Source: Ignavibacteria bacterium (GTDB lineage Bacteria; Bacteroidota; Ignavibacteria; SZUA-365). From it: a stretch of 64,000 nucleotides of DNA. This document shows, piece by piece, positions 8,751-62,147 of the stretch. Positions within the stretch are counted from its first letter, which is position 1, and the number at the start of each line of letters is the position of its first letter. The position numbers were made by a program, and so were the translations under genes. The stretch is from contig PKTF01000078.1 of assembly GCA_002869275.1 (NCBI GenBank), forward strand, positions 1,839-65,838, in the 5' to 3' direction. The notes below the pieces were generated by a model. The model was given only the letters and a program-made list of their open reading frames with translations. It made no database searches and was not told the DNA's origin.

Positions 8751-11309
8751 ATGAAGCGCTATCTCTTTGCCACCCTATTCCTCGTGATGTTTCCGACGCT
8801 CATGTTCGCGCAGCGGGACATTGTGGAACTTTCAAATGCGGACCCGACAACGTGCTGCTTCGAAATGCTGCTCGCCAATGAGCACGCACCGGAGTCTTCC
8901 CTTGACCGGGTGCGCCTGGTGTCTTTGACTCCGGGGGTACAGTTTACACCCGACGCCAATGGTCCCTGGCCGGAGCATCTGGTCAGCGAAACGGTGCTGG
9001 AATTCGGAGAGGAGGGAAATGAGCTGCCGACGGGAGAGCTGCTCGAGGGCTTCCTGCTGTGTATTGAGCGGCTTCCGGGAGCCCCCAGCAACTTTCGCGT
9101 CGCCTGGACGACGGAATTCGAGGGGAACCTCATGGACACCGATACGCTGGAATTGCAGTGCGAGTCGATGGAGAGCTACTGCGATTCCGTCAGCGTGCTC
9201 CCGTTCGCACCCCCGATCAAACCTGAGGGGAGCTGCTGTTTCGATATCACCCTGCATAACCTGCACGATCCGGAAGGTGCTCTGAACCGGTTCACCGTGC
9301 GCATGTTCGATCCGCGTGCAACGATCGTCAGCGTTTCGGGATCTCCCTGGCCGGTAGCTGATCAATCCGCCACAGAAGTGACATTCAAGGCTTCAGGCGA
9401 TTCCCTCGCGACAGGAATGTCTCTCGGCGGTTTCCGCATCTGCATATCTCCGCCGGATGGGCAATCCGCTTCCGTACCTCTGTTCTGGACCTCAGGCAAT
9501 GACGATATCGTGGTATGTGAAGGAGTCGCTTTCGCAGAATGCGACATCACGGAGAATCCGCGCTGTGATTCCATATTCCACCAGGAACAGCAGGACTGCA
9601 GCATCAGCGTCGGTTTCACCAACCTCCATATTCCTCGCGGCAACATCGACGGCTTCCGCGTCCGCGTGCTCACCACCGGCGGCGGTATCGATACCGCCAC
9701 TGCTCCGCAGGGATGGGATGTCGCGAGTCAATCCGCACTTACCGTGCGCTTCGCCAAACAGGACACACCCATTGGTTCCGGCGAAACAGCCGACGGTTTC
9801 ACCCTGCGCTTCAAAGCACCCACCGGCCGCTTTTTCGATGTCGCGATCTGTACGATGCTGGACGATGCGGTCATCTGCTGCGACACCATTCAACTGGAAT
9901 GCGATCCGCCGCCACCGACGTTCTGTTATTCACTGCTGATCGATGCCGTACCGAATACCTGTACCTACGACCTCGGTTTCGTGAATACGCATCAGCCGAC
10001 ATCGGCCGTGAACGATTTTCATGTTCGCCTGCAAACCGATGGTGCTTCCATCGCCGATGCTTCTCCGCCGGGAAACTGGTTCATCGCCAGCAACGACGGA
10101 CGAAACATCATTTTCCGCGATACCACGGGCATCGTGCTGCCGGACGAGGAGCAGAGCGGCTTCATGCTGTCGCTCGCACCGGGTGACGGAGACGGACGCA
10201 TCATTTTCGAATGGTGCACTTCACTCGACGGTACAGTCAATTGCTGCGATATCGCCTCTGTGTTCTGCGATCCCCCCGTCGATCGCTGCGATTCCCTGTA
10301 CGTACTTCCCGGTGAAGGGTACTGTCAGTACGAAGCGGGATTCGCAAATCTGCACGTCCCGGTTTCAGGAGTGGATGCTTTCCATGTCACATTGGACGAT
10401 GCCGAGACCATGCTGCTCGATGCGGAGGCGCCGGACGGCTGGACCATCGACGAGCTTTCTGAAGGTGGCGCGACGTTTGTGATAGATGGCGCCGCATTGT
10501 CCACCGGTGTCGCGCAGGAAGGCTTTATTCTGAAGCTCCTGCCCTCGGCACAGTCGAAACGGATTCCGCTCACTCTGTGTACTTCGCTGGACGACAGTAC
10601 ACTGTGCTGTGATACCGTCAGTGTGTTCTGCGAATTCGAGATCGTGCAATGTGACGTGATCGATGTCATCACGGACATTGACCAGGCCTGCTGTTTTGAG
10701 TTCGAATTGCAGAATGTGCACCTGCCTCGCAGCGGAATCGATGCCCTGAATGTGGAAATCCTCACCCCGGATGTCATTTTCTATACATCCACGGTCGAAG
10801 ACGCAGCCGGCTGGGAGCACCTGACGAATAGTCGCCGCATAGGCTGGCGCGCTCTCGACGCGGCTCTGCCATCGGGTGAAACGCTCGGCGGCTTCAAGGT
10901 GTGCTATGACAATGATGCGATCGGGAACGCCGATTTCCAGATTTCCGTGCAGACTCTCAGCAGCGGTCGCATTCTCTGCATCGACACGCTGACGATCAAA
11001 TGCGATCGTACGCTGAGTGTGGAGCGTCTCGAGGGCATGCTTCCATCGCGCTACGGGCTTCATCAGAACTATCCGAATCCCTTCAATCCCTCAACGACGA
11101 TTGAGTTCGACTTGCCCGTTCCGGCGGATGTCATACTCAGCCTGTATGATACCGAGGGAAGGCTATTGATGGATCTCGGATCAGGAAATTATCTGGCGGG
11201 TACATACCGCGTATCCCTCGATGCTTCATCACTCCCGAGCGGCGTGTACTTCTATCAGTTGCGGACATCGGAGTTCATACAGACACGCTCGCTGCTTCTG
11301 CTCAGGTAG
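8751..11309 (+). CDS. large secreted T9SS cargo protein built of six ~115-aa cysteine-rich repeats of an unrecognised domain
   Basis: Signal peptide MKRYLFATLFLVMFPTLMFA. Six repeats each carrying …C(D/Y)S…C…(F/L)xNxHxP…(V/I)(D/N)xFxV… and ending …CCD(T/I)xx(V/L)xC. C-terminal T9SS CTD YPNPFNPSTTIEFDLP…GVYFYQLR. Confidence 0.75.
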   Translation: MKRYLFATLFLVMFPTLMFAQRDIVELSNADPTTCCFEMLLANEHAPESSLDRVRLVSLTPGVQFTPDANGPWPEHLVSETVLEFGEEGNELPTGELLEGFLLCIERLPGAPSNFRVAWTTEFEGNLMDTDTLELQCESMESYCDSVSVLPFAPPIKPEGSCCFDITLHNLHDPEGALNRFTVRMFDPRATIVSVSGSPWPVADQSATEVTFKASGDSLATGMSLGGFRICISPPDGQSASVPLFWTSGNDDIVVCEGVAFAECDITENPRCDSIFHQEQQDCSISVGFTNLHIPRGNIDGFRVRVLTTGGGIDTATAPQGWDVASQSALTVRFAKQDTPIGSGETADGFTLRFKAPTGRFFDVAICTMLDDAVICCDTIQLECDPPPPTFCYSLLIDAVPNTCTYDLGFVNTHQPTSAVNDFHVRLQTDGASIADASPPGNWFIASNDGRNIIFRDTTGIVLPDEEQSGFMLSLAPGDGDGRIIFEWCTSLDGTVNCCDIASVFCDPPVDRCDSLYVLPGEGYCQYEAGFANLHVPVSGVDAFHVTLDDAETMLLDAEAPDGWTIDELSEGGATFVIDGAALSTGVAQEGFILKLLPSAQSKRIPLTLCTSLDDSTLCCDTVSVFCEFEIVQCDVIDVITDIDQACCFEFELQNVHLPRSGIDALNVEILTPDVIFYTSTVEDAAGWEHLTNSRRIGWRALDAALPSGETLGGFKVCYDNDAIGNADFQISVQTLSSGRILCIDTLTIKCDRTLSVERLEGMLPSRYGLHQNYPNPFNPSTTIEFDLPVPADVILSLYDTEGRLLMDLGSGNYLAGTYRVSLDASSLPSGVYFYQLRTSEFIQTRSLLLLR

Positions 11310-12520: not shown

Positions 12521-15500
12521 ATGAGATCCTTTCTGCTGTCCTGCGCGTTCCTTTTTGTCATGCTTCCCGCTTCTCTGTTTTCCCAGGCACAACTCAGTAT
12601 GAGCATTCATCTGCCCGATGTGCAGGTGAACGTGGCTGCGGAGTCGTATGAACCGAATCCGCTGCCGGTGACGGCAACCATTTATAATACAGGAAATGCT
12701 GCCTCGGACTCACTGATGGCGCGTATCAGCCTGGTGACCGGGCTCGCTCTTGACAGCAGCGAACAGTCGGTGATGATCAAGCGACCCGCTTCCGCTGTTG
12801 TGCCGCCCGGCGACTCGGCTACCGTCGTGTGGCAGATCGTCGTTCCTCCCGCTTTTTCCATGAAGAATTATCGCGTCTATGTCTGGCTGAAATACGGTGC
12901 AAGTGATTCGCTTTCAACGAATTATCTGTTCACCGTTCCGGCGATGACAGCCCCGGATCTCGTGATGACACCCAACGGACTGCCGGATCTCGCCGTACGG
13001 CCTGATTCACTGGGATATCAGGGGAATCCGTTTGCGGTGAACTTCCGTTTCACCAACGCCGGCGGAACCACGGCCGACAGTGTGTCCGTATTCCTGGAAC
13101 TGCCCGTGGATTACGAGTTGGATCCCCCGACACAGGACAATCCCATGGTATTTCCGGGACTGATGAAACCGCAGGCCGCCGGGGGACCCCGCTACTACGA
13201 GACCTGGACGGTGCGATACGTGGGTGCCGCGCGCGCGCAGCGTACCGACACCCTGCGGCTGCACGCGCGTGCGAAGGATATTACCGGCGGACTTGTCACA
13301 TCATCCGAGGAGCTTCCGATCAATGTGGCAGGAATGAATCCCGCCCTGGACATCTCATTCATAGATCCGGGTTCGCTGCAGTTCGACAGCGCGAATATTT
13401 ATACGCCTCAGCCCTATCCTCTCATCGTTCGGCTGACAAACAATAGTGAACAGTGGACGGTGCTCAAGGACATGGATTTTACACTACTTGGAGTAGGTGT
13501 CTCCACACAGGATCCGCTCAATCGTCTGCTGCCCGCGCTGTCGCCGGGGAGCCATCTCGACCTGACCTGGCGCATCGCAGTCGAACGACGGAATTTTGCC
13601 AGACAGTTTGTCGGACGCGCCGCAGTAAGGGATTTCGAGCTTTACGAGAAAGGAGACCAGCGCATCGTATCGGTTCCCGGTCAGCCATACGCCCTCACTG
13701 TTCAGGATCCCAACGTACCAGATTCCCTTTCACGCAACGCGGCTGGAAGCAATCTGCTTACACGCACCATACCATTGTCGTATCGTCTGTTGAATGAGAC
13801 CTGGTACAACAATACCGTCGTGTATGTCAAGGTTCAGTCGATGGGACAGGACATTGACGGACCGCCGTTCAGGGAACATCAGCCTATGCTCGCACTGCGT
13901 CCGGGTGAGAAAAGCGCCGCCCTGCAAGACACGTTCACCGTGCAGCCCGCGCTGAAAGACCGCGTGGTATCGTTTTCCGTGCTGGCCTACACCGATCTGG
14001 GAGACACGGCTAAGGCCGTCTACCCGGTACGTATTCCCGGCGTGATGCCTGTGTTCAGCCTGACGCGCAGGGGTCCCGAAGCACTTGCCTATCTGCCCGG
14101 CGGCACGTATACGCCTAATCCCTTCTCCCAGGAATATACCCTGCGCAATGAAGGACATGTGGCAGTACGGATTGACTCGATCGTACTTCGTTATCAGATG
14201 GATGGCGTCACATCCGCGCAGCCACTGCGTCGCGACATCGGCTGGATGCTCCAGCCCGGCGACAGCATGTTGACGCGATGGGATTTCTCCGCCTACGTGC
14301 GGGATACGCTGCGGCGACTGCCGATGCAGGTCACGGCCTATATGTCGGGTGAGTATGCCGCATCAGTGGGACATGTGCTTGAAATCCCGGCACTCTTCCC
14401 TGTGCTGACCACATCGGTGAGCGGACCGGATACACTGAGCTATGACCCGATAACCACGTACACTCCGAATCCGTTTACCAAGACTCTTCTTCTGCGCAAT
14501 ACCGGCACAGCCGATCTTCATCTGGACAGTGTTACACTCGAGTTCTCGGATGCCCTGGTGACGCTGGAGAGTCCGCGTACCTGGTCTGACGGACACATCA
14601 TCCAGCCCGACAGTGCGCTGTCACTTTCGTGGACGCTGAGTGCGGGCGAGCGGGATTCTGAAGTGCAGCTGCCGATGGATTTCCGGATTCACCACTCTGC
14701 AGGCAAAACCGATGTGCAGCAGACAACAGTGTATATTCCCGCTCTGAGGCCGGGTCTCGATGCTTCGATTCTTGGTAACGCGCAGCTGGTGATCGACGAA
14801 GAGGATATCTACCGCCCTGATCCCTTCACCAAAACCGTTCGTATTTACAACTCAGGTACGGCCGATCTTTTCATCGACAGCATGTCCGTTTCCTTTACTG
14901 ATCCCGGACTGCAGCTCATTGAGGAGCCGTCTCGCGTGATCAACGCGACCGTCAGTGCCGGAGACGAGCTGCTGGAGGACTGGAATTTCAATGCGGCACC
15001 GCACGCCTCAGCCGGGTACGTGAGTATCAACTTCATCGTCTACCACAGTGGCGGGGAGTCTCTACCCCTGCGAGGTGAGATTTACATCCCGGGAGAGCCC
15101 TTCGCGTTCTCGCTTGCGGATACGAACCTTCCGGACAGGCTGTTCGCGCGTCCCGACGGCCAGGGATACGAAGGCAATCCCGTGGTGCTGTCCTACACCG
15201 CGCACAACGACGCATGGTTTGCCACGACGCTTTCGCGCGTCAATGTCGAACTCGAGGGAAACGGGGTACAGATGCTGACACCGCAGCCCTGGATTCCGGC
15301 GGTTACGCTGGGTGCTCATCAGAAAACAGACGTGCTGAAAGACTCGTTCTTTGTCTTTCCCGCCCAGATCGATCGCACCATCCGTGTGCGCATAAGTATC
15401 GAGGGCAGCCGCGGACTCGGAGACAGCCAGGAGTTTCTACTCTTTGTTCCGCGTATTATTTCCACCGCGGCGGAGAACGTGGACGCGCCTGCGGATTTTG

Positions 15501-15760
15501 CCATCCAGGCCCTGTACCCGAATCCTGTCTCAAGCAGGCTGGGCGGAATGCTGACTTTCCGCATACGCAGCAAGGCAGCATTTCAGTGGGATATCACGGA
15601 CATTCTTGGACGTCGTGTCCGCAGGTCCACCGTGGAGGACGAAGCCCCCGGGTCAGTCCTCCGGAATGTGACGCTTGATGGCCTGCCACAGGGCAGTTAC
15701 CTTCTACGCGTACAGAGCGGAAAGAAGATATTGACGCGGAGCTTCCTCATTCTTGAATAA
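12521..15760 (+). CDS. giant secreted T9SS cargo protein with ~7 CARDB-like repeats
   Basis: Signal peptide. Repeats with (Y/F)xPNPFxxxxxxxNxGxxxxxxxxV, for example YTPNPFSQEYTLRNEGHVAVRIDSIVL and YRPDPFTKTVRIYNSGTADLFIDSMSV. C-terminal T9SS CTD LYPNPVSSRLGGMLTFRI…GSYLLRVQ. Confidence 0.75.
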   Translation: MRSFLLSCAFLFVMLPASLFSQAQLSMSIHLPDVQVNVAAESYEPNPLPVTATIYNTGNAASDSLMARISLVTGLALDSSEQSVMIKRPASAVVPPGDSATVVWQIVVPPAFSMKNYRVYVWLKYGASDSLSTNYLFTVPAMTAPDLVMTPNGLPDLAVRPDSLGYQGNPFAVNFRFTNAGGTTADSVSVFLELPVDYELDPPTQDNPMVFPGLMKPQAAGGPRYYETWTVRYVGAARAQRTDTLRLHARAKDITGGLVTSSEELPINVAGMNPALDISFIDPGSLQFDSANIYTPQPYPLIVRLTNNSEQWTVLKDMDFTLLGVGVSTQDPLNRLLPALSPGSHLDLTWRIAVERRNFARQFVGRAAVRDFELYEKGDQRIVSVPGQPYALTVQDPNVPDSLSRNAAGSNLLTRTIPLSYRLLNETWYNNTVVYVKVQSMGQDIDGPPFREHQPMLALRPGEKSAALQDTFTVQPALKDRVVSFSVLAYTDLGDTAKAVYPVRIPGVMPVFSLTRRGPEALAYLPGGTYTPNPFSQEYTLRNEGHVAVRIDSIVLRYQMDGVTSAQPLRRDIGWMLQPGDSMLTRWDFSAYVRDTLRRLPMQVTAYMSGEYAASVGHVLEIPALFPVLTTSVSGPDTLSYDPITTYTPNPFTKTLLLRNTGTADLHLDSVTLEFSDALVTLESPRTWSDGHIIQPDSALSLSWTLSAGERDSEVQLPMDFRIHHSAGKTDVQQTTVYIPALRPGLDASILGNAQLVIDEEDIYRPDPFTKTVRIYNSGTADLFIDSMSVSFTDPGLQLIEEPSRVINATVSAGDELLEDWNFNAAPHASAGYVSINFIVYHSGGESLPLRGEIYIPGEPFAFSLADTNLPDRLFARPDGQGYEGNPVVLSYTAHNDAWFATTLSRVNVELEGNGVQMLTPQPWIPAVTLGAHQKTDVLKDSFFVFPAQIDRTIRVRISIEGSRGLGDSQEFLLFVPRIISTAAENVDAPADFAIQALYPNPVSSRLGGMLTFRIRSKAAFQWDITDILGRRVRRSTVEDEAPGSVLRNVTLDGLPQGSYLLRVQSGKKILTRSFLILE

Positions 15761-15785
15761 ACTGAACGCCTTTCCACACAAAGCG

Positions 15786-18731
15786 ATGCATCGACGCTGT
15801 TTCCGATCCTTCGCACCCTTCCTGCTTCCACTGCTGCTCGCCGTGCAGGGCGGGTGTGCGTATCTGCCCTTCACAGGAGATGACAAGGATGCGGGAGAAC
15901 AAGGTGAAGCACGACCTGAAATTGCCGCGGTGTCGGTGCAGCCCCCTGCGATCACATTTCCTGCCGATTCCATTCCATTGATACAGGAGGAAGAAGCGTC
16001 CCTGCCTCTTGTCACTCCATGGATCGACAGTCTCCTTGCAGGTATGACAGACCGGCAGCGTATTGCACAACTTCTCGTGCCGTTCAGTTTCAGCGATCTG
16101 GCCGAAAAAACGCTCGACCAGCTGCGTATCGCCGTCAAGGACCAGCAGGTCGGAGCGGTTTTGCTCTCACGTGGTACGCTCGGGGAGGCGCGACAGCTGC
16201 TCGACTCGCTGCAAAGCTGGGCACGTGTGCCCCTTCTGGTGTCGGCGGATTTTGAAACAGGTCCGGGCCGACGGTTTGTCGGGGCGCTTGAACTTCCTTC
16301 GATGATGGCGCTCGGAGCTACGCGTGACCCACAGCTGGCGTATCGCGCAGGACGCGCGGTGGCAGAAGAATCGCGCGATATCGGCGTGCATGTCAACTTT
16401 GCGCCGGTCGCGGATATCAACAGCAATCCGCGTAATCCCATCATCAACACACGCTCCTTCGGAGAAGACCGCGGCCTGGTCGCCAGAATGACCGAGGCGT
16501 TCACGCGCGGTCTGCAGGACGGAGGGATGATCGCCACACCGAAGCATTTTCCGGGACACGGTGATACGGAAACCGACTCGCATTCCGGTTTACCGGTCAT
16601 TCATGCGACGCGGGAAAGAATGGACAGCCTCGAGCTGTATCCATTCCGCCGTCTGGTCCGCGCGCGAGCTATGGCGATGATGACGGCGCATATCGCCGTG
16701 CCTTCCCTGACGGGCGACAGTGCGCTGCCCGCGACGTTTTCCCGGGTCATTCTGGATTCACTGCTGCGGGGAGAGATGGGATTTTCGGGATTGATCGTCA
16801 CCGATGCCCTCAACATGAAGGCCTTGAGCAGGGGAAAAACGGAGAACATTCCCGCAGCTGCGCTGGCCGCAGGAGCAGACCTGCTTCTGATTCCCGCTGA
16901 TATCGATGCGACGATCGATTCCGTGACTGCAGCGCGCGCGCGCGGCGAAATCGACAGTGTACGGCTGCTCGGCTCGGTACGTCGTGTGCTCGCATTGAAA
17001 GAGTGGGTTGAGGCACAGAGCAGTCCGGTGGACTCCACTCTCACGCGGCTCGAACGCGCCGGACGCCATCGCAGGCTGGCAGACCATATCGCCGAGCGCG
17101 CCGTGACGCAGCTGCGCAATGTGAACGAGACACTGCCTATCGAACTCGATGGTAAAACGATCGGTATTGTGAATCTGGTACGACGATCACAGCCGGGTGC
17201 AGCTGTTCAGCTGGCACGGGAGCTGGAGAAGCGCGGTGCTGCAGTGCACATGCTCACGCTTTCCAAAACCATGAAATCACGAGATTGGGAGAAATGGAAA
17301 TCCGAGCAGATCGAGAAGCTGGATGTCCTGCTCATATCATCTTTCATCACGATTGCCGACGGCAGCGGAAACATCGCGTATTCCGATGCACAGAATGAAA
17401 CCCTGGAAGAAATCGCTGCACTCGAACTTCCACGCGTTCTGCTTGCGATGGGAAGTCCATATGTCGCATCGTCCATAGGCGGCATCCCCGCGGTACTGCT
17501 GGCTTATGGACGACAGGCCCCTTCCGTTCGTGCGGTCGCCCGCATCCTCGCCGGAGAAATCGAAGCTTCGGGTACGCTGCCGGTCAGCATTCCCGGGTTG
17601 GAGCAAACCGCCGATATGAAGCCGCGTGTTTCAGAAGCGGAGAGACGACAGCTGTTCTCGGAGGTCGACAACCTGGTGATGGAACAGATCAAACGCGCGT
17701 CATTTCCCGGCGGACAGCTGCTTGTGCTGCGCTGCGACCGCGTGGTCTACGACCGCTGTTACGGAGCGTTCACCTATGACAGTAACGCCAGTCCTGTGAC
17801 CGCCGGAACCCTGTATGACCTGGCTTCACTCACGAAGGTCGTGGCGACTACTCCGGCGGCCATGCGACTGGTCGACGAAGGCCGGCTGCACCTCGACAGC
17901 ACGGTGGCGTTTTATCTCCCGAAATTCGCGGCCAACGGTAAGGAGCACATCACGATCCGCAACCTGCTGATGCATAACAGCGGACTCGAAGCATACCGGC
18001 TGTTCTATCTTTCCCTTGACAACGAACAGGACGTCATCGACAACATTTTCAGCAGTGAACTGGCGTATGCGACCGGCAGTAAAACTGTATACTCAGATCT
18101 TGGAATGATTACCCTCGGGAAGGTGATCGAACGCATAACCGGCATGACGCTGGACAGTTACGTGCGCTCAGAATTTTATGATCCGCTCGGGATGCATGAA
18201 ACGATGTTCAATCCACCGGACTCGCTTCGCACGCGTATTGCTCCCACGGAAGTAGACGGTACCTGGCGAAAGCGGCTGATACACGGTACGGTGCACGATC
18301 CTGCCTCGGCCCTGCTCGGTGGTGTTGCCGGACATGCCGGACTCTTCTCCTCCGCACGCAGCCTGCTTCCCTTTGTGCGCATGATGCTGCACGAAGGAAC
18401 GCTGGACAGCGTGCGCTATATCGATGATGCGACACTGCGTTTGTTCACCACGCGGCAGTCCGGCGGCAGCACGCGCGCGCTCGGCTGGGATACGCGCTCG
18501 ACAACCGGGTCATCGTCCGGCAGGTATTTCTCGATGAAGTCGTACGGCCACACCGGATTCACCGGCACATCGATCTGGATCGATCCTGTCGCGAGCGTTG
18601 CCGTAATTTTTCTGACAAACCGCGTGCATCCGACTGCGGCGAACAGGCAGCAGGCACGCTTCCGCTCGGTTTTGCACGACGCCGTGCGCGAGGTACTGAC
18701 CGACATGGATCTCCTTACCCCGCGTCGATGA
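15786..18731 (+). CDS. bifunctional glycoside hydrolase family 3 (NagZ-like beta-N-acetylhexosaminidase) / serine beta-lactamase-like (AmpH/PBP4-like) fusion protein
   Basis: GH3 N-domain motif KHFPGHGDTETDSHSGLPV. C-terminal serine hydrolase motifs SLTK (SxxK), YSD and HTGFTGT (KTG-like). Signal peptide present. The ORF-track alternative start at 15753 overlaps the upstream stop. Confidence 0.8.
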   Translation: MHRRCFRSFAPFLLPLLLAVQGGCAYLPFTGDDKDAGEQGEARPEIAAVSVQPPAITFPADSIPLIQEEEASLPLVTPWIDSLLAGMTDRQRIAQLLVPFSFSDLAEKTLDQLRIAVKDQQVGAVLLSRGTLGEARQLLDSLQSWARVPLLVSADFETGPGRRFVGALELPSMMALGATRDPQLAYRAGRAVAEESRDIGVHVNFAPVADINSNPRNPIINTRSFGEDRGLVARMTEAFTRGLQDGGMIATPKHFPGHGDTETDSHSGLPVIHATRERMDSLELYPFRRLVRARAMAMMTAHIAVPSLTGDSALPATFSRVILDSLLRGEMGFSGLIVTDALNMKALSRGKTENIPAAALAAGADLLLIPADIDATIDSVTAARARGEIDSVRLLGSVRRVLALKEWVEAQSSPVDSTLTRLERAGRHRRLADHIAERAVTQLRNVNETLPIELDGKTIGIVNLVRRSQPGAAVQLARELEKRGAAVHMLTLSKTMKSRDWEKWKSEQIEKLDVLLISSFITIADGSGNIAYSDAQNETLEEIAALELPRVLLAMGSPYVASSIGGIPAVLLAYGRQAPSVRAVARILAGEIEASGTLPVSIPGLEQTADMKPRVSEAERRQLFSEVDNLVMEQIKRASFPGGQLLVLRCDRVVYDRCYGAFTYDSNASPVTAGTLYDLASLTKVVATTPAAMRLVDEGRLHLDSTVAFYLPKFAANGKEHITIRNLLMHNSGLEAYRLFYLSLDNEQDVIDNIFSSELAYATGSKTVYSDLGMITLGKVIERITGMTLDSYVRSEFYDPLGMHETMFNPPDSLRTRIAPTEVDGTWRKRLIHGTVHDPASALLGGVAGHAGLFSSARSLLPFVRMMLHEGTLDSVRYIDDATLRLFTTRQSGGSTRALGWDTRSTTGSSSGRYFSMKSYGHTGFTGTSIWIDPVASVAVIFLTNRVHPTAANRQQARFRSVLHDAVREVLTDMDLLTPRR

Positions 18732-18825
18732 CCGGGTCTGATTGACTTTTCTTTCTGATTGCCTTACTCTGAGTGCATTCGAATCAGAGAAAAATCTCCT
18801 CAAATACTGTCTCGGAGGATATATC

Positions 18826-20196
18826 ATGCAGCGTTCCCGCATCATGTTCATGATCATCGTGTGCTGCGCATGTGCCATCCAACTCAACGGACAGGTGTAT
18901 TTCGAGACCAGTCTGCACGCGACACGCCAGGGGAAGGTACACTGGTACGAGAGTGGATTCTACCTTCTCACGAGCGTGGATATCAAGGACCTGGGATGTA
19001 CCTCCTGCCACGGACCGACCGATGCCGACGGTAATGCCTATACCGGCGAGTACAAGCCAGGATGCGTGGACTGTCACCCCACCGGCGACTTTTCGCGCGA
19101 AGCGCTCACCGAGCAGCAGTGTCTCGGTTGCCACGGAAGGCAGAATGCGGAAATCAATTCGCTGGGATTGAAGGACGTGCACCGCGACGAAGGGGTGGAA
19201 TGCTGGGACTGTCACAAGGCCACCGAAATCCACGGCGAGGAAACCGGTCATGTCTCAATGTGGGAGGCGGGAGCCATCACGGCCTACTGCACGGACTGTC
19301 ACAGCCGCTTGCCCGAAGGACACGACCAGTATGACCCCCATGCGGGCAAGCTGCATTGCAGCGCCTGCCATACCTCCACGGTGATTACCTGCTACAACTG
19401 TCATTTCGAAAGCCAGGTGCAGAGTCACGTCAAACGCGCGAAGCAGACGCTGTCGGGTTTCGTCATGCTGGTCAACCGCGAGAAGGACGGGAAAGTGGGG
19501 ACGGCGTCGTTTCAATCCCTGACCTGGCAGGGCAAATCGTTCGTCGCCTTTGCGCCCTATCACGCGCACGCCATCGAGGAGGAAGGTCGACGCTGCGGCG
19601 CCTGCCACCTGAATCTCGGAGGCAGCAATACCGCGATAGAGGAATACAACAGCACGGGCAGAATTCAATTCGCATCCTGGAATGTCTCAGACAGCACGCT
19701 CAGCTGGCTGCGCGGCGTCGTACCGATTCCATCGGACTACACGCAGAGCCTGAAAATGGATTTTATCACGTATAACGGCAGCACCGCGGATCCGGCGGGT
19801 CCGAGCGCGAACTGGTCGCTCATCGGAGCCGAATGGACGGCGCAGCACATGCTTTATGCCACACCACTGACAACAGCACAGATGGCAAAGCTGGGTATGA
19901 CTGCGACGGATGTCGATCGCGTAGGTCCAGCTGAGAGTTTCGCCCTGCAGCAGAACTATCCGAATCCGTTCAATCCCTCGACGACCATCGTATACAGCGT
20001 CGGACGGGCCGGAAATGTGATGCTCACCGTGAGTGATACACAGGGCCGTATCGTGAGAACGCTTGTCGCTCAGCATCAGGACGCCGGACGCTACTCCGTT
20101 GTTCTCAACGCCGATGATTTGCGCAGCGGTGTATACCTGCTGCATCTGGAAGCGGGCAGTTTCCGCAGTACGAAGAAAATGCTATTGCTGCGGTAG
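18826..20196 (+). CDS. octaheme c-type cytochrome with T9SS C-terminal sorting domain (predicted cell-surface cytochrome)
   Basis: Eight CxxCH motifs: CTSCH, CVDCH, CLGCH, CWDCH, CTDCH, CSACH, CYNCH, CGACH. Signal peptide MQRSRIMFMIIVCCACAIQLNGQ. SD ggagg 8 nt upstream. C-terminal QNYPNPFNPSTTIVYSV…GVYLLHLEAGSF CTD, homologous to the CTDs of the other cargo in this window. Confidence 0.8.
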   Translation: MQRSRIMFMIIVCCACAIQLNGQVYFETSLHATRQGKVHWYESGFYLLTSVDIKDLGCTSCHGPTDADGNAYTGEYKPGCVDCHPTGDFSREALTEQQCLGCHGRQNAEINSLGLKDVHRDEGVECWDCHKATEIHGEETGHVSMWEAGAITAYCTDCHSRLPEGHDQYDPHAGKLHCSACHTSTVITCYNCHFESQVQSHVKRAKQTLSGFVMLVNREKDGKVGTASFQSLTWQGKSFVAFAPYHAHAIEEEGRRCGACHLNLGGSNTAIEEYNSTGRIQFASWNVSDSTLSWLRGVVPIPSDYTQSLKMDFITYNGSTADPAGPSANWSLIGAEWTAQHMLYATPLTTAQMAKLGMTATDVDRVGPAESFALQQNYPNPFNPSTTIVYSVGRAGNVMLTVSDTQGRIVRTLVAQHQDAGRYSVVLNADDLRSGVYLLHLEAGSFRSTKKMLLLR

Positions 20197-39933: not shown

Positions 39934-40130
39934 CAGCATCGACATCGGCGTTTGACACGGTGCCTCGCGAGGCACCGTTCGTATTATTCGTGAATCCACC
40001 GCCGCGCATCGGCATCATTCAGGAAAATAATGGGAATTTCTCCTCGAGTACGGTTGAGATAGAGTTGTTCAACGCCTACATTTCTTCTGATCGGTATGAT
40101 CATACATCACCCTCACAGAGAAGGCATCTC

Positions 40131-41519
40131 ATGCGCAGCATTTATTTCCTTGCGTTGATCGCGTGCGCCACATCGATTCTGCATGCACAGGAACATGATT
40201 TTATCGAAGGACCATTTGCATCTCCACAGGAACTGACGGAAACCTGCCTTGGCTGTCACGAAGAAGTCGGTGACGCCGTCATGGCAACGCGGCATTGGAA
40301 TTGGCTTGGAAAAGAATTCGAATCCGGTGAACGGGGCGTGATTCGCCTCGGGAAGCAGAACTTCATCAACAACTTCTGCATCGGGGTCACATCGAACTGG
40401 CCGCGCTGTACCAGCTGTCATATCAGCTACGGCTGGAAGGATGGCAGTTTTGATCACAGCGATCCGAACAACATCGACTGCCTCGTCTGCCATGACCAGA
40501 CAGGGACGTACAAAAAGACACCCACCGGAGCAGGCATGCCCGCAGAGGACGTCGATCTCGTTACCGTGGCGCAGAGCGTCGGTACGCCAACACGCGGCAA
40601 CTGCGGCGTCTGTCACTTTGACGGTGGCGGCGGGAGCGGTGTCAAGCATGGCGACATGGACGATAGCATGTATGAGCCATCGGCCGAACTTGATGTGCAC
40701 ATGGGCGGACTGGATTTCGAATGTACGGAATGCCACACAACAGAAGACCACATGATCGCAGGCGCGGGACACGGTTCGATGGCTGAGGATATCAACCATA
40801 TTTCCTGCATGGACTGTCACGACGACGAAGTGCATGAGAAGTCCATCCTGAACAACCACATCTCATCAGTCGCCTGTGAAACCTGTCACGTTCCCGCCTT
40901 CGCACGACAGGAAGCGACCAAGACCTGGTGGGACTGGTCCGCCGCGGGTGAAGACCGAGAGGCGGAAAAAGACAAGTATGGAAAGGAAACCTACAGCAAG
41001 AAAAAGGGCGAGTTTCGCTGGGAGAAAAACGTCGTTCCCACCTACAAGTGGACGCGCGGCAAGGCCGAGTATTACGTGCAGGGTGATCCGGTGAAGGCGG
41101 GCGCGGTTGTGGAGCTCAATCGTATCATCGGCGGTATCGACGATGCCGAAGCTAAAATCGCACCGTTCAAGGTGATGCGTGGCAAGCAGCCGTATGACAA
41201 GGAACACGGCATCCTGATCGTGCCGCATCTCTTCGGGAAAGACGGATACTGGAACACATATGACTGGGATTCCGCGTCACGTATCGGAATGACGGCCGCA
41301 GGACTCGACTATTCAGGATCGTACGGCTTTATCGAAACGGAGATGTCGTGGCCGATCAATCACATGGTGGCACCTGCGAAACAGGCACTGCGCTGTACGA
41401 GCTGTCACGGAAAGCGCGGAGAGCGCCGCCTGGATTGGAAGGCGCTCGGATACCGGAAGGATCCCATCACCCGCGGGACGCGTTTCGAGCAGGGATTGGC
41501 CAAAGCTCCCGAAGAATAG
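40131..41519 (+). CDS. octaheme c-type cytochrome, tetrathionate-reductase (OTR) family-like, periplasmic
   Basis: Signal peptide MRSIYFLALIACATSILHA. Eight CxxCH motifs: CLGCH, CTSCH, CLVCH, CGVCH, CTECH, CMDCH, CETCH, CTSCH. No T9SS tail. Gly-rich CHFDGGGGSGVKHG segment as in OTR-type proteins. Confidence 0.7.
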   Translation: MRSIYFLALIACATSILHAQEHDFIEGPFASPQELTETCLGCHEEVGDAVMATRHWNWLGKEFESGERGVIRLGKQNFINNFCIGVTSNWPRCTSCHISYGWKDGSFDHSDPNNIDCLVCHDQTGTYKKTPTGAGMPAEDVDLVTVAQSVGTPTRGNCGVCHFDGGGGSGVKHGDMDDSMYEPSAELDVHMGGLDFECTECHTTEDHMIAGAGHGSMAEDINHISCMDCHDDEVHEKSILNNHISSVACETCHVPAFARQEATKTWWDWSAAGEDREAEKDKYGKETYSKKKGEFRWEKNVVPTYKWTRGKAEYYVQGDPVKAGAVVELNRIIGGIDDAEAKIAPFKVMRGKQPYDKEHGILIVPHLFGKDGYWNTYDWDSASRIGMTAAGLDYSGSYGFIETEMSWPINHMVAPAKQALRCTSCHGKRGERRLDWKALGYRKDPITRGTRFEQGLAKAPEE

Positions 41520-55943: not shown

Positions 55944-58900
55944 TCAGTGAATCACGAGCAGGTTCGTGGTCTGAACCTGTGCGCCGGACTGCACGCGCAC
56001 CCGGTAATTGCCCGTAGGCAGGCTGCCGGTGTCGAGATTAACTGTATGCGAACCGGCGGTCAGCTCTGCACGCATGCTCTGCAGCACGAGACGTCCGAGG
56101 TTGTCAAAAACATCGATCTGTGTACCTGCACGCGATTCCAGCGTCAGTCCGAGTGTGAGTCCGCGGCTGGAGCTGGTCGAAATCGGATTCGGGTACATGT
56201 AATCGATATGGAATCCATTCGCTGCCACGGGACGTTCCACCGAGGTGGTGCCGTAGGGATCGAAGTTCGAACGGAACTTGAAAATGTCGATGCCCGCGGT
56301 GTAGACGTCCGAAAGAGATGTATTGGAGAATGACGTCGATGTGGAGACGTTGGCGAAGTTGCTGGGTACGGCCTGCACCGTCCAGCTTTGAGCCATGTCG
56401 TCGGATACCCAGGCATTTGTCCCCTGGATGAACCAGATACGACGCCCGTTTTCTTCCATCTCAACGGTACCGCCAGTGCTGACCTGAATGGTATTGCGCT
56501 GCAGCCACGTGTCACCACCATCTTCGGTGACAGCAAGCATGTTGGTGCCGCCCAGGTTGGTTTGTGTGGTGAAACGGATGATGCCCCGCTTGCTGTCGGC
56601 GAATGCCATGTCCACCGAATGCTTGCTCGGCGTGGTGATACTCGTCCAGCTCTGACCGCGGTCAGTCGAGCGGTAGATCTTGCTGTTGTTCGTACCGAAC
56701 CACAGCGTGTCGCCCGCGGCGTCGTATGCATTGTTCCATCCGGCTTCACCCGTTGGGGCATTTACCGGATTCGCGAGCGGTGTCCATGTAGCACCTCCGT
56801 CGTCGGTAGTCGCGATACCCCACACACCGTCCTTCGGATCGCCCTGCAGAATACCGTTATTGATGTCGTACATGTGTATCCAGTTTACGAAACCGGTGAA
56901 ACCGGCCACGGAAGTACCGCTCCAGGTCGAACCGCTGTTGACAGTACGGAAAACTTCCGCTGCGCCGGTGCTCGGACCTGTACCCACCAGGGCGACGTTA
57001 TTCGTTACGGCGTCGATGCAGTAGACACCCTTGCCCGAGGGGAAGCCCGAACTGTTGCCGACGCTCCACGAGCCGCCGCCGTTGAGACTGCGAACGAAAT
57101 AATCACGGCTGGAGACATTTGCGGTTCCCCAGACGGAAGTGACCGAAGCGGCGTCGATGGACGTGAAGTAGGGTGCGCCGAAATTCATCGAGGTGTGCCA
57201 GGCATCGTTGAGGAATATGCTGGCACGGCCCATGAAGTAGTCCACATATTCACCATCGATGATTTCCATGCGCACGGGAATGTACCCTTCCGAGGTTTCC
57301 GGTTCATCGGAGAGCGCAATGTCGAATTCCACCGTTTTGGTTCCGAAGGTCTCGATGACACCGAGAGGAAAATCGTTTGCATCGGTGGAGATCGAAGGAT
57401 CATCGAGATTGACGCGCAGGATGGCATTCTCCGAGGTGGGAGCGAGAACATTTTCCACCACGACTGTGACGTGTGCCGTCTGTCCCGGTTCGGAAAAGCG
57501 CGAACCGCTTTCGTAAGAGATGGCGAAGCTTTTCATGCGGACGCCGGGGATGTCGGTCAGATTTTCATTGAGAGATACAGCTTTGAATGCGTTGATGCGT
57601 CCGTAGCGCTTGCTTGCCGGCGAGGCACCGAAGCGATCAGACGTCACGCGGATCTGCGCGGCAACCTGGTCGGGTGTCCAATCCGGATGTACAGACATGA
57701 CCAGCGCGGCGACACCGGCCGCCAGCGGGGCGGAGAAGGATGTACCGGTCGGGCTCGTGTAGCTGCCGCCCTTGCGCGTCGTGGTGATGCCGTTGCCGGG
57801 TGAGTAGACGTGGACGGAAGTGCCGTAAGTGCACCACTGTGAGGCGTTACCGTTGGATTCCACCGAACCCACGTTCAGCACGTGGTCGAGTGCCGATGGT
57901 GTGTGCGGGATATAGTCGTTATCCAGCGGATCGTTGCCTGAGGAACCGACCACGAGTGAACCCATGGCGGTGACGTCATCGACGATATCCTGAAGGGCCT
58001 TGACGATCGGACCAGTGCCTCCCCAGCTGCAGTTGATGATGTGGGCACCCATCTGCGCTGCATAGAGAATTCCGTCATAACCCGCGGCAATGCCTGTCGA
58101 ACTGTTGGCCGCGGCCTTGATGGCGAGGATTTTGGAGCTGAACGAACTGCCCGCGACACCCGTTGCGTTGTCGGTGCGTGCTGCGGCACAGCCCGATGTG
58201 TTGGTGCCATGGCCGATCGCGCCGTCCATGGGGTTGTTATCGGGTATGGGACTCTGTGAACTGCCGTCACCGATGAAATCCCAGCCGTGCCAGTCGTCGA
58301 CCTTACCGTTATTGTCATCGTCGATGCCGTTGTCCTTCAACTCCCCGTTCGTACCCCATTCACCGGGATTGGTCCAGATGTTTTCCGCGAGGTCGGGGTG
58401 CGTCCAGTCCACGCCCGAATCCACGTCGCCGATGATGATTGTGGAATCGCCTTTCGTGATGTCCCAGGCTTCCTTGAGCTTCATCACATCAATAGCCCAC
58501 TGCTGTGCGAGCCGCGTGTCGTTGGGAGTGTAATGGAAGGGGAAGATGTAGTACGGTTCGGCGTATTCCACGCTCGGATCGTTGCTGACTTCCATGGCCA
58601 GCAGCGAGGGATTGTCGCCTGATGTATAGCGTACTTTCACCATGCGGTCGACGTTGTACCGCGGTCGCGCGGCTTTCTGCAGAGCGGTTTCTTTGTTCGT
58701 GTTGAAGGGCTCGACCTTTTCCGCGCCAATGCGTTCCAGCAGCTGATCGAGGCTTTGTATTCCGAGGCGCGCGCCGTCCGTCGTAAAGGATTGCTGTTCG
58801 CGCAGCTTGATAATCAGAAGGTTGGGAACGGTCTGCAGACGGCCTTTCTCCGCGGAAGCGGTACGCGGTGCATCGCGTTCGGGACTATCTGCCTGCAATT

Positions 58901-58952
58901 CGACAGTGCACAACAGCAACGCTGCCGCGCAAATAAGGGAAAGAATTTTCAT
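55944..58952 (-). CDS. S8 subtilisin-family peptidase fused to BNR/Asp-box beta-propeller and T9SS C-terminal sorting domain
   Basis: Catalytic Asp (GDVDSGVDWTHPDL), His (HGTNTSG) and Ser (GTSFSAPLAAG). Asp-box repeats SxDxGxTW x6 (NSGSTWS, TDDGGATWT, TDRGQSWT, TEDGGDTWL…). CTD YMYPNPISTSS…GNYRVRVQ. Confidence 0.85.
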   Translation of the reverse strand: MKILSLICAAALLLCTVELQADSPERDAPRTASAEKGRLQTVPNLLIIKLREQQSFTTDGARLGIQSLDQLLERIGAEKVEPFNTNKETALQKAARPRYNVDRMVKVRYTSGDNPSLLAMEVSNDPSVEYAEPYYIFPFHYTPNDTRLAQQWAIDVMKLKEAWDITKGDSTIIIGDVDSGVDWTHPDLAENIWTNPGEWGTNGELKDNGIDDDNNGKVDDWHGWDFIGDGSSQSPIPDNNPMDGAIGHGTNTSGCAAARTDNATGVAGSSFSSKILAIKAAANSSTGIAAGYDGILYAAQMGAHIINCSWGGTGPIVKALQDIVDDVTAMGSLVVGSSGNDPLDNDYIPHTPSALDHVLNVGSVESNGNASQWCTYGTSVHVYSPGNGITTTRKGGSYTSPTGTSFSAPLAAGVAALVMSVHPDWTPDQVAAQIRVTSDRFGASPASKRYGRINAFKAVSLNENLTDIPGVRMKSFAISYESGSRFSEPGQTAHVTVVVENVLAPTSENAILRVNLDDPSISTDANDFPLGVIETFGTKTVEFDIALSDEPETSEGYIPVRMEIIDGEYVDYFMGRASIFLNDAWHTSMNFGAPYFTSIDAASVTSVWGTANVSSRDYFVRSLNGGGSWSVGNSSGFPSGKGVYCIDAVTNNVALVGTGPSTGAAEVFRTVNSGSTWSGTSVAGFTGFVNWIHMYDINNGILQGDPKDGVWGIATTDDGGATWTPLANPVNAPTGEAGWNNAYDAAGDTLWFGTNNSKIYRSTDRGQSWTSITTPSKHSVDMAFADSKRGIIRFTTQTNLGGTNMLAVTEDGGDTWLQRNTIQVSTGGTVEMEENGRRIWFIQGTNAWVSDDMAQSWTVQAVPSNFANVSTSTSFSNTSLSDVYTAGIDIFKFRSNFDPYGTTSVERPVAANGFHIDYMYPNPISTSSSRGLTLGLTLESRAGTQIDVFDNLGRLVLQSMRAELTAGSHTVNLDTGSLPTGNYRVRVQSGAQVQTTNLLVIH

Positions 58953-59156: not shown

Positions 59157-62147
59157 TTAGTTAATCACCATCACGTTACGTGCCACCGTCTGTTTCGGCG
59201 TCGTCATACGCAGCACATAACTGCCAGCCGCGAGGTTTCCGATCGACACGCTGGCGCTGTGCGTTCCGATGCCCAGCGTTGCGTTCACGACTTCGCGTAC
59301 CTTGCGTCCGCTCATGTCGTACAGCGCGAGCACGACAGGTTCGGCCTGCGTAAGCGAGATTTCCGCCGTGAGGCTGCCCTGATAAGCGGAAGCCGGCTGC
59401 GGGTACACGGAGAGAATGCGCGGCGATTCCGGCTGTGAAATCGGGTTCTGCACGGAGACGACGGCTTTGTGCGGACTCTCGTACTTGAAGATTTCGATAC
59501 CGGCAGCGAAGACCTTGCTGACGAAACCGTCATTCCATTCCGCCGCGTCGTTGACGAAGTCAAACGACAGCGGAGTGGCCTGCACGTTCCATGTCACACC
59601 GAGGTCTGTTGACGCATAAGCATTTCCAGAAGTCATGAACCAGAGACGTTCGCCTCCACGTTCGAAGACTACCGAACCATACGGCGCGGCGATGGTGGAA
59701 ATAAGGCTCCAGGTGAGACCGCCGTCAGTGGTGACCGCCAGTGTATCGGTGCCCTGGCTGTTCTGTTCGGAGAAACGCGCCACACCCGTCATCTGGTCGC
59801 GGAAGGTGATATCCGTGGCATTCTTGCTCGGTACCGGATAGGACTGCCAGTTCTGGCCACGGTCCGTCGTCCGGTAGATGATGCTGCTGTTTGTACCGAA
59901 CCAGCCATGATCGCCGATAAAGTCGTAACTGTTGTTCCACCCGGCTTCGCCCGTGGCGGCGGAAAGCGGATTGCTGATTGGTGTCCAATTGTATCCGCCA
60001 TCCGATGTCGTCGCGATACCCCAGATGTTGCTGTTGGGATCGCCCTGCAAAATGCCTTCGTTGTCGTCGAACATGTGAATCCAGTTGACGAATGGCGTCA
60101 TGGAGGCGACGCTGGTACCGGACCAGCTCTGACCACCGTCATTCGTGCGATACACTTCGGCGGCACCGGTTGTCGGACCCGTTCCAACGAGCGCGCTGAA
60201 TTCGTCGATACCGTCGATGCAGTAGACGCCTTTTCCGTCGGGATAGCCGGTACCGAAGGCAAAGACCCAGCTGTCGCCGGCGTCGGTGCTGCGGATGGCG
60301 ATATCCTGCGTAGGTACGCCATTCTCAGTGAAATCACCACTGACCCACACGTTCCAGCGATCAGGAATATCGATGGAGTTATAGGGATAGCGCAGATCGA
60401 GTGAGGTGTGCCAGCCGTCGGTCAGGTTCAGTTCGATACGAACAAGATCGAAGTCCAGGTATTGGCCGTCTGTGAATTTGAGAATGACAGGAATGTAGCC
60501 TTCCGACATGGTCGGATTCTCGGTCAGTGTCAGCGTGAACGAAATCGTCATTGATTCCATGGTATTCATGGCACCCAGCGTTGCGCTGGTCGTGTTGAGC
60601 GTGCCATAGGCCGGATCAACTTCGAGTTCCACCATGGCGTTGCTCGTCGGGGCGAGCAGGTTTTCGATCACGACCTGTACCGACGCTTCCTGTCCGGCTT
60701 CGGTGAACTGGCTGCCGGCCGAAGTCATCACGTCGTAGGATTTCACTTCGAGTCCGGGAATCTCATCGAGCGAAGCGTTCATGGAAAGCGCCTTGTAGGC
60801 ATTGGCGCGACCGTAGTGCAGCGCTTCATACTCGGTACCGAACTTGTCCGAGGTAACGCGGATCTGCTTCAGCACCTGGTCGGGAGTCCAGTCCGGGTGA
60901 ATCGCGAAAATCAGTGCGGCAAGTCCCGACATCATCGGCGCTGAGAAGGACGTACCGGTCACATTCTGGTAGCCGAAACTCATGCGCGGTGCAAGCACGT
61001 CGGTACCCGGAGCATACACATGCACCGAACTGCCGAATGCCGCCCATGGCGAGGCTGAGCCGTCCTGTTCGATGGAGCTGACCGAGAGTACGTGGTTGAG
61101 AGATGCAGGGATGAAGGGATCGAGATCATTGTTGATGACGGCATTGCCCGCGCCGCCTACCATGAGCGCACCCTTCGACCATGCGTAGTCAATTTCGTCC
61201 TGCAGTACCTGGCTGATCAGTGCATTGCTGCCCCAGCTGGCGTTGATGACCTTGCAGCCCATGTCGGCGGCGTAGCGCACGGCCCAGTAACCGGCCATGC
61301 CGGTGGTGTTGGCATCATCCTGCACCTTGATCGGAAGGATCTTGGTGTGGTAGCCGATACCGGCGATACCCTTGCCGTTGTTCGTGCGAGCAGCGGCAAC
61401 ACCGGCACCGTTTGTGCCGTGTCCGTTGAAGTCCATCGGGTCATTGTCGGGATTCGGCGCCTGCAGCGTGCCGTTGCCGATGAAATCCCAGCCGCGCCAG
61501 TCATCGGTGTAACCGTTGCCGTCGTCATCGACGCCGTTGTCCTTGAGTTCACCGTTGGTGCCCCATTCACCCGGATTGACCCAGATGCTGCCGGCGAGGT
61601 CTTCGTGGTTGTAGTTCACGCCCGAATCGATGTATCCGATCACGATGGTCGAATCGCCCATGGTGATATCCCAGGCTTCTTCCATCTTCAGAGAAGCGAT
61701 GGCCCACTGGGTGGAGAGGCGCGGATCGTCCGGGGTGTGGGTGGGACGCAAGTTGATGAACGGTTCGGCGTATTCCACGGCGGGATCGGCCGAAATCTCC
61801 TCTGCGAGGGCGAGGGCGTCCACCGGAGCGCTGTAGCGCACGAGCATGATGCGCGCGAGGCTTTCTTCTTCAGGTGAAGTATAGCCCTTACGCAGCGAAA
61901 GCGACGGGTGCAGCGCTTCGACCGATGTGGTCATGATGCGATGCAGCACCTTGTCGATGTTCTGAAGGCCGAAGCTCTTTGCTCCGGGTGCGACAGACTG
62001 CACATTTTTCAGTTTGATGAACATCATGCCGGGCACGAAATCGGCCTGCGACAGGGAAGTGTTCTTCCCCGGACGCTCGACTTTCTCGGCACCGGCTACG
62101 CTGCAGAGCAGCAGCAGCAATGCGATAACGGGTACGGCTGTACGCAT
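59157..62147 (-). CDS. S8 subtilisin-family peptidase with BNR/Asp-box propeller and T9SS CTD (tandem paralogue)
   Basis: Same architecture as the upstream gene: GYIDSGVNYNHEDL, HGTNGAG, GTSFSAPMMSG. Asp-boxes TNDGGQSWS, TSDGGYNWT, TDRGQNWQ, TDGGLTWS. CTD …SVYPQPASAYQGSL…GSYVLRMT. Confidence 0.85.
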   Translation of the reverse strand: MRTAVPVIALLLLLCSVAGAEKVERPGKNTSLSQADFVPGMMFIKLKNVQSVAPGAKSFGLQNIDKVLHRIMTTSVEALHPSLSLRKGYTSPEEESLARIMLVRYSAPVDALALAEEISADPAVEYAEPFINLRPTHTPDDPRLSTQWAIASLKMEEAWDITMGDSTIVIGYIDSGVNYNHEDLAGSIWVNPGEWGTNGELKDNGVDDDGNGYTDDWRGWDFIGNGTLQAPNPDNDPMDFNGHGTNGAGVAAARTNNGKGIAGIGYHTKILPIKVQDDANTTGMAGYWAVRYAADMGCKVINASWGSNALISQVLQDEIDYAWSKGALMVGGAGNAVINNDLDPFIPASLNHVLSVSSIEQDGSASPWAAFGSSVHVYAPGTDVLAPRMSFGYQNVTGTSFSAPMMSGLAALIFAIHPDWTPDQVLKQIRVTSDKFGTEYEALHYGRANAYKALSMNASLDEIPGLEVKSYDVMTSAGSQFTEAGQEASVQVVIENLLAPTSNAMVELEVDPAYGTLNTTSATLGAMNTMESMTISFTLTLTENPTMSEGYIPVILKFTDGQYLDFDLVRIELNLTDGWHTSLDLRYPYNSIDIPDRWNVWVSGDFTENGVPTQDIAIRSTDAGDSWVFAFGTGYPDGKGVYCIDGIDEFSALVGTGPTTGAAEVYRTNDGGQSWSGTSVASMTPFVNWIHMFDDNEGILQGDPNSNIWGIATTSDGGYNWTPISNPLSAATGEAGWNNSYDFIGDHGWFGTNSSIIYRTTDRGQNWQSYPVPSKNATDITFRDQMTGVARFSEQNSQGTDTLAVTTDGGLTWSLISTIAAPYGSVVFERGGERLWFMTSGNAYASTDLGVTWNVQATPLSFDFVNDAAEWNDGFVSKVFAAGIEIFKYESPHKAVVSVQNPISQPESPRILSVYPQPASAYQGSLTAEISLTQAEPVVLALYDMSGRKVREVVNATLGIGTHSASVSIGNLAAGSYVLRMTTPKQTVARNVMVIN

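Follow-up and report, generated by a model that had tools for sequence, protein, structure and literature searches.

The window analysed here, a stretch of 64,000 nucleotides of contig PKTF01000078.1 from a metagenome-assembled genome (MAG) labelled Ignavibacteria bacterium (GCA_002869275.1), carries on its plus strand an open frame (8718-11309) in which an ATG at 8751 begins a protein of 852 amino acids (aa). The translation is 100% identical to the NCBI entry 'MAG: hypothetical protein C0600_03125 [Ignavibacteria bacterium]' (852 aa). This protein combines a predicted signal peptide, six tandem copies of a cysteine-rich unit that together make up 86% of its length, a short linker and a C-terminal type IX secretion system (T9SS) sorting domain (CTD), an architecture which points to a surface stalk. 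Each unit is assigned to type A or type B according to its third cysteine pair (a pair joining strands B and F, or a pair within the G-H hairpin), and the features of the locus are as follows.

8751..11309, plus strand: repeat-protein gene, 852 aa, stop codon 11307-11309, from the open reading frame (ORF) list and its translation
8751..8810, plus strand: predicted Sec signal peptide, residues 1-20, MKRYLFATLFLVMFPTLMFA, read from the sequence, where the confidence score pLDDT of the structure model is below 50
8814..9161, plus strand: unit 1, residues 22-137, type A, four Cys, presumed distal N-terminal bead, without the C7-C122 pair (columns of the 50-repeat alignment described below)
9162..9542, plus strand: unit 2, residues 138-264, type A, six Cys, CC...GFxxC pattern
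9543..9902, plus strand: unit 3, residues 265-384, type B, six Cys, WCT...CCD pattern
9903..10268, plus strand: unit 4, residues 385-506, type B, the unit modelled singly as a nine-strand beta-sandwich (pLDDT 95)
10269..10631, plus strand: unit 5, residues 507-627, type B, six Cys
10632..11003, plus strand: unit 6, residues 628-751, type A, presumed cell-proximal, with the highest mean identity of any unit among orthologues (59.5%)
11004..11069, plus strand: conserved linker from the last unit to the sorting domain, residues 752-773, DRTL...LHQ
11070..11306, plus strand: type A T9SS C-terminal sorting domain, residues 774-852, PF18962 and TIGR04183
11334..11367, plus strand: intrinsic-terminator-like hairpin, a 10-bp stem with five GC pairs and, behind it, a T7 run, 25 nt past the stop; a consensus match only, of which the same scan expects about 2.9 in a shuffled region

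The repeat is most easily followed through the motif N-x-H-x-P, whose six occurrences lie at residues 43, 170, 291, 412, 533 and 655, with a spacing of 121-127 residues. All six units align over their whole length at 18-36% pairwise identity (unit-versus-unit BLASTP, up to 75 bits), and a hidden Markov model (HMM) trained on these six units and nothing else picks up 6 or 7 units, at 35-135 bits, in every homologue, which places the repeat far beyond chance. A BLAST of the whole protein against itself returned the self-match only, the copies emerging by unit-versus-unit BLAST and HMM, and no DNA-level tandem repeat was detected inside the gene by TRF, which indicates that the duplication is ancient. 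An earlier note on this DNA had proposed six tandem copies of an undescribed repeat of ~115 aa; the copy number is confirmed, and the period is corrected to ~121 aa (116-127). Its "strictly conserved" features survive in part. The second Cys, N-x-H-x-P, a Trp, a G-F pair and the final Cys are the only elements common to all six units, whereas the opener and the closing cluster vary: C-(D/Y)-S is replaced by R-D-I in unit 1 and C-D-V in unit 6, and C-x8-CCD is found in units 3-5 only, with one Cys at that place in units 2 and 6 and none in unit 1.

To delimit the family, relatives were collected in two ways. A word-index homologue search returned eight full-length relatives only, an underestimate of the family, among which proteins with six units share 43-63% identity with the query and those with seven units ~31%. 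The 50 repeats of the eight homologues form the alignment (A1) used for profile searching and modelling. An exhaustive profile search with this alignment found 269 representatives (of clusters at 50% identity) at E<=1e-3, 72 of them at E<=1e-30. Nearly all are T9SS cargo proteins from uncultured bacteria of the FCB group. Searches of family libraries (Pfam-A, 2025 copy, and NCBIfam 20.0) gave no match in the repeat body, the whole protein matching only at its CTD in a Pfam scan at E<=1; the 50 repeats scanned singly against Pfam at E<=10 gave seven unrelated single matches, none recurrent, and no PDB sequence was matched in a profile search at an E below 0.6. No CARDB, PKD, FN3, HYR, cadherin or Big match was obtained at these thresholds (whole protein E<=1; 50 single repeats E<=10). 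The description of the repeat as undescribed is borne out by these scans, and its separation from Ig and similar folds holds at the level of sequence family, which no known family claims, but not at the level of fold, as shown next.

The isolated unit 4, modelled by AlphaFold2 (AF2) from the 50-repeat alignment, is an all-beta domain of nine strands and no helices (pLDDT 95, predicted template modelling score, pTM, 0.87), with strands A at 9-14, B at 20-26 and, toward the C-terminus, F at 82-91, G at 98-107 and H at 110-120. Foldseek ranks a fibrillar adhesin's CLIPPER domain first among the matches to this model (E 3e-4), and the query-normalised TM-score never rises above 0.62; such weak matches indicate a generic immunoglobulin (Ig)-like/cohesin-like sandwich without a close solved relative, and the unit fold is modelled as such. 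In the full-length model (pLDDT 82, pTM 0.28) six separate sandwiches precede the CTD, and pLDDT drops below 50 at three of the five junctions between units (139-142, 387-390, 630-632). Separate sandwiches with low-confidence junctions are the signature of beads on a string.

Cysteines make up 4.0% of the protein, and they follow a strict pairing rule. Across the 50 repeats, the Cys columns 7/122, 26/97 and 113/123 are each gained and lost together (phi 1.00), the pairs 26/97 and 113/123 exclude each other (phi -0.92), and column 25 accompanies column 131. The same behaviour is found in a validation set of 311 domain instances outside the profile-building set (HMM positions): pair 7/114 has both cysteines in 218 domains, only one in 3 and neither in 90 (phi 0.98); pair 21/90 has both in 172, only one in 3 and neither in 136 (phi 0.98); and pair 105/115 has both in 54, only one in 3 and neither in 254 (phi 0.97). 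A fourth pair, 20/122, is present in 303 of the 311, and the Cys count is even in 92% of them. Strict pairing of this kind implies up to three disulfides per unit, and by the strand order of the model each paired set would lie at the same pole of the sandwich. In the columns of the 50-repeat alignment, a near-universal bond, C25-C131, is predicted to tie the beginning of strand B to the domain's final residue, while an optional bond, C7-C122, ties the N-terminal arm to the last strand. The third bond has two alternatives, the classical Ig B-F bond C26-C97 of type A (units 1, 2 and 6, and the predominant type in the wider family) or the G-H hairpin bond C113-C123 of type B (units 3-5). The thioester motif C-x-E-Q is absent. 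Of the two structural suggestions in the earlier note, a disulfide-stapled beta-sandwich or a metal site, the former is upheld by the all-beta model at pLDDT 95 together with Cys columns paired at phi 0.97-1.00.

Export is predicted from both ends of the protein. Cleavage of the signal peptide is predicted between MFA and Q, which would leave Gln21 (8811-8813) as the mature N-terminus. This residue is invariant across the eight homologues, and its exposure fits the 'Q-rule' of Bacteroidetes, in which Gln directly after the signal-peptidase site gives rise to pyroglutamate N-termini (PMC5837995), here in a MAG labelled Ignavibacteria. At the other end, residues 774-846 match PF18962 at 32.4 bits (cut-off 27, E=1.2e-7) and TIGR04183 at 35.8 bits (cut-off 23, E=6e-9); with both models above their curated cut-offs, the protein is a T9SS cargo as had been claimed. 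The linker preceding this tail retains ~60% identity, and its residues D752, R753, T754 and L755 are invariant in the eight homologues. At least five window proteins end in this type A sorting tail, the repeat protein and four more, the latter providing an indirect argument for an active T9SS. The composition of the protein is also distinctive: it is very acidic (D+E 14.2%, K+R 5.3%, net charge about -76), contains only 9 Lys (1.1%), and is the most extreme among 17 window proteins compared. The other T9SS cargo proteins of the window are likewise poor in basic residues.

In sequence, each unit resembles the unit at the same position in orthologues far more than it does the other units of its own protein; thus unit 4 shares 79% identity with its orthologue in one relative (P0002), versus 18-36% with its sisters. 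Among six-unit orthologues mean identity is 39-45% for units 1-3, 54% for unit 4, 51% for unit 5, 59.5% for unit 6 and 70% for the CTD, such that the distal units evolve faster and identity rises toward the cell-proximal end. Overall, the repeat protein changes more quickly than the products of the housekeeping genes beside it (43-51% identity versus 77-88% for PurE), as is typical of exposed surface proteins.

Taken together, these features are best explained by a T9SS-exported, surface-anchored, disulfide-stapled stalk or fibril of the beads-on-a-string type with an adhesin-like architecture, a reading to which we assign a probability of about 0.62 and which agrees with the adhesin suggested in the earlier note. 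In the proposed pathway, the signal peptide would be removed after Sec export, and the six units of ~121 aa would fold in the oxidising periplasm as independent nine-strand Ig-like/cohesin-like sandwiches with up to three disulfides each. The type A CTD would then direct export through the T9SS and, by the precedent of T9SS cargo already studied, anchoring on the outer surface, so that unit 6 would adjoin the cell and unit 1 would form the distal tip. The product would be a very acidic rod, mechanically and proteolytically robust and, we infer, ~20-25 nm in length, which may serve as a stalk or fibril in the capacity of a spacer, a surface coat or an adhesin-like filament. As the protein has no separate head, any binding would lie in the faster-evolving distal units.

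Fibrillar adhesin-like proteins are one of the nearest parallels, being defined by a stalk of repeated domains, an adhesive domain that is usually terminal, and a surface anchor, with Por_Secre_tail and CHU_C both on the list of anchors (PMC8286594, 2021). Like those proteins, the repeat protein is predicted to be extracellular, with a stalk of tandem beta-sandwiches and a C-terminal anchor (Por_Secre_tail), and in its relatives the module co-occurs with the known stalk domains PKD, HYR and SdrD_B. In contrast to them, it has no detected adhesive domain, unit 1 being just another copy of the repeat; its stalk domain falls outside the Pfam stalk families; its repeats are old and divergent (18-36%); and its staples are up to three disulfides instead of isopeptide or ester bonds or Ca2+. 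With the stalk and the anchor present and the adhesive domain lacking, the repeat protein appears to work like the stalk of a fibrillar adhesin and is not filed as a member of that class. Covalent intradomain staples within a surface stalk are likewise found in CLIPPER (9ifr) and in CnaB-type pilin domains, which use Lys-Asn/Asp isopeptide bonds where the repeat protein uses cystines. An isopeptide or ester cross-link (CnaB, CLIPPER, or the Thr-Gln ester) was considered and rejected, since no consensus column holds Lys, Gln or Glu in at least 45% of 627 domains and the protein contains 9 Lys; the best 150 of the 269 representatives plus the eight close homologues together supply more than 600 domain instances.

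Several observations weigh against the stalk interpretation or limit its scope. No adhesive or ligand-binding domain was found by Pfam or NCBIfam, so that the term 'adhesin' is not demonstrated. The T9SS machinery was not located within the 64 kb covered, and the members of the family are without exception from uncultured MAGs or metagenomes. The family is set apart by sequence-profile scans, and a remote link to some named family may exist. Lastly, the conservation of old units by position is no less compatible with specialised units than with passive spacers.

Beyond the orthologues, the family takes several forms. Proteins made entirely of repeats carry 4-10 units, whereas giant members reach 3338 aa with 1-4 identifiable scattered copies, and one of 3143 aa has seven. 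Partner domains in the sampled members include PKD, HYR, SdrD_B, DUF928, DUF642, Laminin_G_3 and CHU_C. Some relatives carry lectin or enzyme heads, among them an Ignavibacteriota protein in which seven units come after an N-terminal arylsulfotransferase head. A T9SS CTD was identified in 120 of 157 members by an iterated local HMM, used in place of the regular expression 'NYPNPF', which is too strict for tail counts; many of the other members are short and may be fragments. Close orthologues, searched among GTDB species genomes, occur only in uncultured Bacteroidota/Ignavibacteria MAGs. Two loci, L007 (CAZWNO010000023.1) and L014 (CAYJMN010000001.1), are labelled 'uncultured Chromatiales' and have the same order of PD40-OmpA gene, repeat gene, purE and 1079-aa gene; by this synteny shared with the Bacteroidota/Ignavibacteria MAGs, the labels are probably wrong. 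The MAG Zod_Metabat.348 (JAFGKR01) encodes two paralogues, a six-unit copy in the purE-linked locus (L005) and a seven-unit copy, P0007 (L003/L016), of ~31% identity, in an unrelated context where it is divergent from a different T9SS cargo gene of 920 aa.

In the window, the repeat gene is divergent from the upstream PD40/OmpA gene (6545-8530, minus strand) and is followed by the terminator-like hairpin, and on this basis it is monocistronic and independent of its neighbours. No sigma-70-type promoter was found upstream of it, a null result that is uninformative, since the promoters expected in this bacterial group deviate from the sigma-70 consensus, the only type covered by the scan. Downstream of the hairpin lie, in order, purE, the gene for a T9SS cargo of 1079 aa, a GH3/beta-lactamase fusion, a T9SS multihaem cytochrome, DUF1579, M48 and S46, and the order PD40-OmpA gene, repeat gene, purE, 1079-aa gene and GH3 is kept in 14 loci. 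The 1079-aa cargo (12521-15760, plus strand) has faint CARDB/NPCBM_assoc matches only, is syntenic with the repeat gene in the 14 loci and evolves at a similar rate (42-55% identity); an hhalign comparison with the repeat profile gave no relation (probability 0.7%). In the adjacent ORF (15753-18731, plus strand, 992 aa), N- and C-terminal GH3 domains are joined in one protein with a serine beta-lactamase/transpeptidase-like domain, a fusion kept in the syntenic loci L001 and L002. The cytochrome (18742-20196, plus strand) combines Cytochrome_C7/c3 with Por_Secre_tail, and a second multihaem cytochrome (39960-41519, plus strand) has Cytochrome_cB and c7/c3-type motifs without a T9SS tail. Farther along the window, two adjacent paralogous T9SS cargo genes (55944-58952 and 59157-62303, both minus strand) encode proteins of ~1000 aa each, with an S8 subtilase, a sortilin/BNR-like beta-propeller and Por_Secre_tail. 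The PD40/OmpA gene contains, at 6963-7139, a 21-bp tandem array (8.4 copies, 94% match) whose product, (GNNRDGD)n, separates the OmpA domain from the beta-propeller/CarboxypepD_reg part; it has the look of a low-complexity spacer of recent origin that may vary in length.

Other roles can be proposed for an array of this type. The protein could form a non-adhesive, acidic surface coat, a protease-resistant brush or a layer resembling an S-layer (surface layer), which shields the cell and buffers cations without any specific target. The absence of a head or adhesive domain, the extreme composition (D+E 14.2%, K+R 5.3%, Lys 1.1%), disulfide stapling that suggests selection for robustness, and a single fixed chromosomal position by cell-envelope genes (PD40-OmpA, in 14 of 14 syntenic loci) would all suit such a coat; the faster evolution of the distal units fits ligand diversification and evasion alike and does not separate the coat from the adhesin-like stalk. 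We consider this a possible but unlikely role. Conservation of each unit by position, far beyond the similarity between units, is what would be expected if each had its own partner, as in a cohesin-like scaffoldin whose units dock specific proteins and organise other T9SS cargo on the cell surface, and a second large T9SS cargo (1079 aa) holds its place in the gene order across 14 loci. However, no repeat matches the Pfam cohesin model at E<=10, no dockerin-like partner was identified, though no whole-genome search for one was made, and the neighbouring 1079-aa protein has no profile similarity to the repeat; the synteny, moreover, lies within one clade and includes the housekeeping purE, and may reflect plain vertical inheritance. 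A scaffoldin thus appears improbable. Membership in the cohesin family (PF00963) is rejected for lack of a sequence-profile match, and the cohesin modules of C. perfringens GH33/GH84 (2vo8, 2w1n, 2o4e) and of cellulosomal type I share no profile similarity with the repeat; classical cohesins, to our knowledge, are not disulfide-stapled. A related proposal, quite improbable in our view, is that the units are not passive and that a polar cluster (HMM positions Asp8, in 87% of close members; Asn28, in 91% of close and 79% of distant members; His/Asn30; and Thr106), placed by the model's topology at the N-terminal pole of each unit, would constitute a new interdomain site or cross-link, or else that the individually conserved units would serve cohesin-like docking and make the protein a 'T9SS scaffoldin' of uncultured Bacteroidota/Ignavibacteriota.

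The remaining proposals concern metals and electron transfer. In a metal-binding scaffold, the Asn and His of the motif, with or without cysteines, would form a metal site in each unit. The motif Asn is indeed near-invariant (50 of 50 close repeats; family-wide, 91% of close and 79% of distant members), as is the Trp (95% and 86%), but the His is poorly kept, being present in 37 of the 50 repeats of the eight close homologues and, family-wide, in 52% of close and 17% of distant members, with N, R or Y in its place. The His covaries only with the adjacent Pro32 (phi 0.64) and Ser34 (phi 0.55) and with no distant residue of ligand type, and the cysteines, even in number, behave as disulfide pairs. 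YcnI/DUF1775 (PDB 7me6, 3esm), the best structural match, shares only 9-16% identity with the repeat, is a single domain instead of a tandem array, and binds Cu(II) through a free N-terminal amine, an N-terminal His and a Glu (PMC8424229). A YcnI-type N-terminal His site is impossible here because the repeats lie inside the chain, whose mature form begins with Gln21. Membership in YcnI/DUF1775 is rejected as well, with 0 of 50 repeats matching DUF1775 at E<=10 and no N-terminal His for a mono-histidine brace. A conserved metal site is unlikely, and a scaffold built on one would be very improbable; given the strong acidity (net about -76), non-specific cation binding may still take place. Partnership with the downstream T9SS cytochrome, in which the repeat protein would act as an extracellular electron-transfer or mineral-binding scaffold, was suggested by the type A T9SS tail on both proteins within ~10 kb, and further multihaem cytochromes are present in the genome (e.g. 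39960-41519). The cytochrome had been placed 5 kb away and in fact begins 7.4 kb past the stop of the repeat gene, with the terminator-like hairpin and at least four ORFs with Pfam matches between them, including purE, the 1079-aa cargo gene and the GH3/beta-lactamase gene. The shared tail is real, but it is the one found on at least five window proteins. In L001 and L002, the only two loci reaching so far, GH3 is followed by M48 and S46 without a cytochrome between GH3/beta-lactamase and M48, with only CTD-level similarity detected; its absence from these syntenic loci points to lineage-specific insertion or loss. The partnership is largely refuted by synteny, and we regard it as barely credible.

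With the stapled surface stalk as the preferred reading, what is new is the sequence family; fold, architecture and secretion route are of familiar kinds. The analysis opens no new biological mechanism, and metal chemistry and the cytochrome link are unsupported. A disulfide map of unusual clarity follows from the sequences by themselves, with the third cystine taking either of two interchangeable positions, and a disulfide-stapled member would join the isopeptide and ester types among covalently reinforced stalk domains. The domain family is not covered by the Pfam-A and NCBIfam releases searched and deserves an entry of its own, which would allow large 'hypothetical' surface proteins to be annotated as stalk-bearing cargo.

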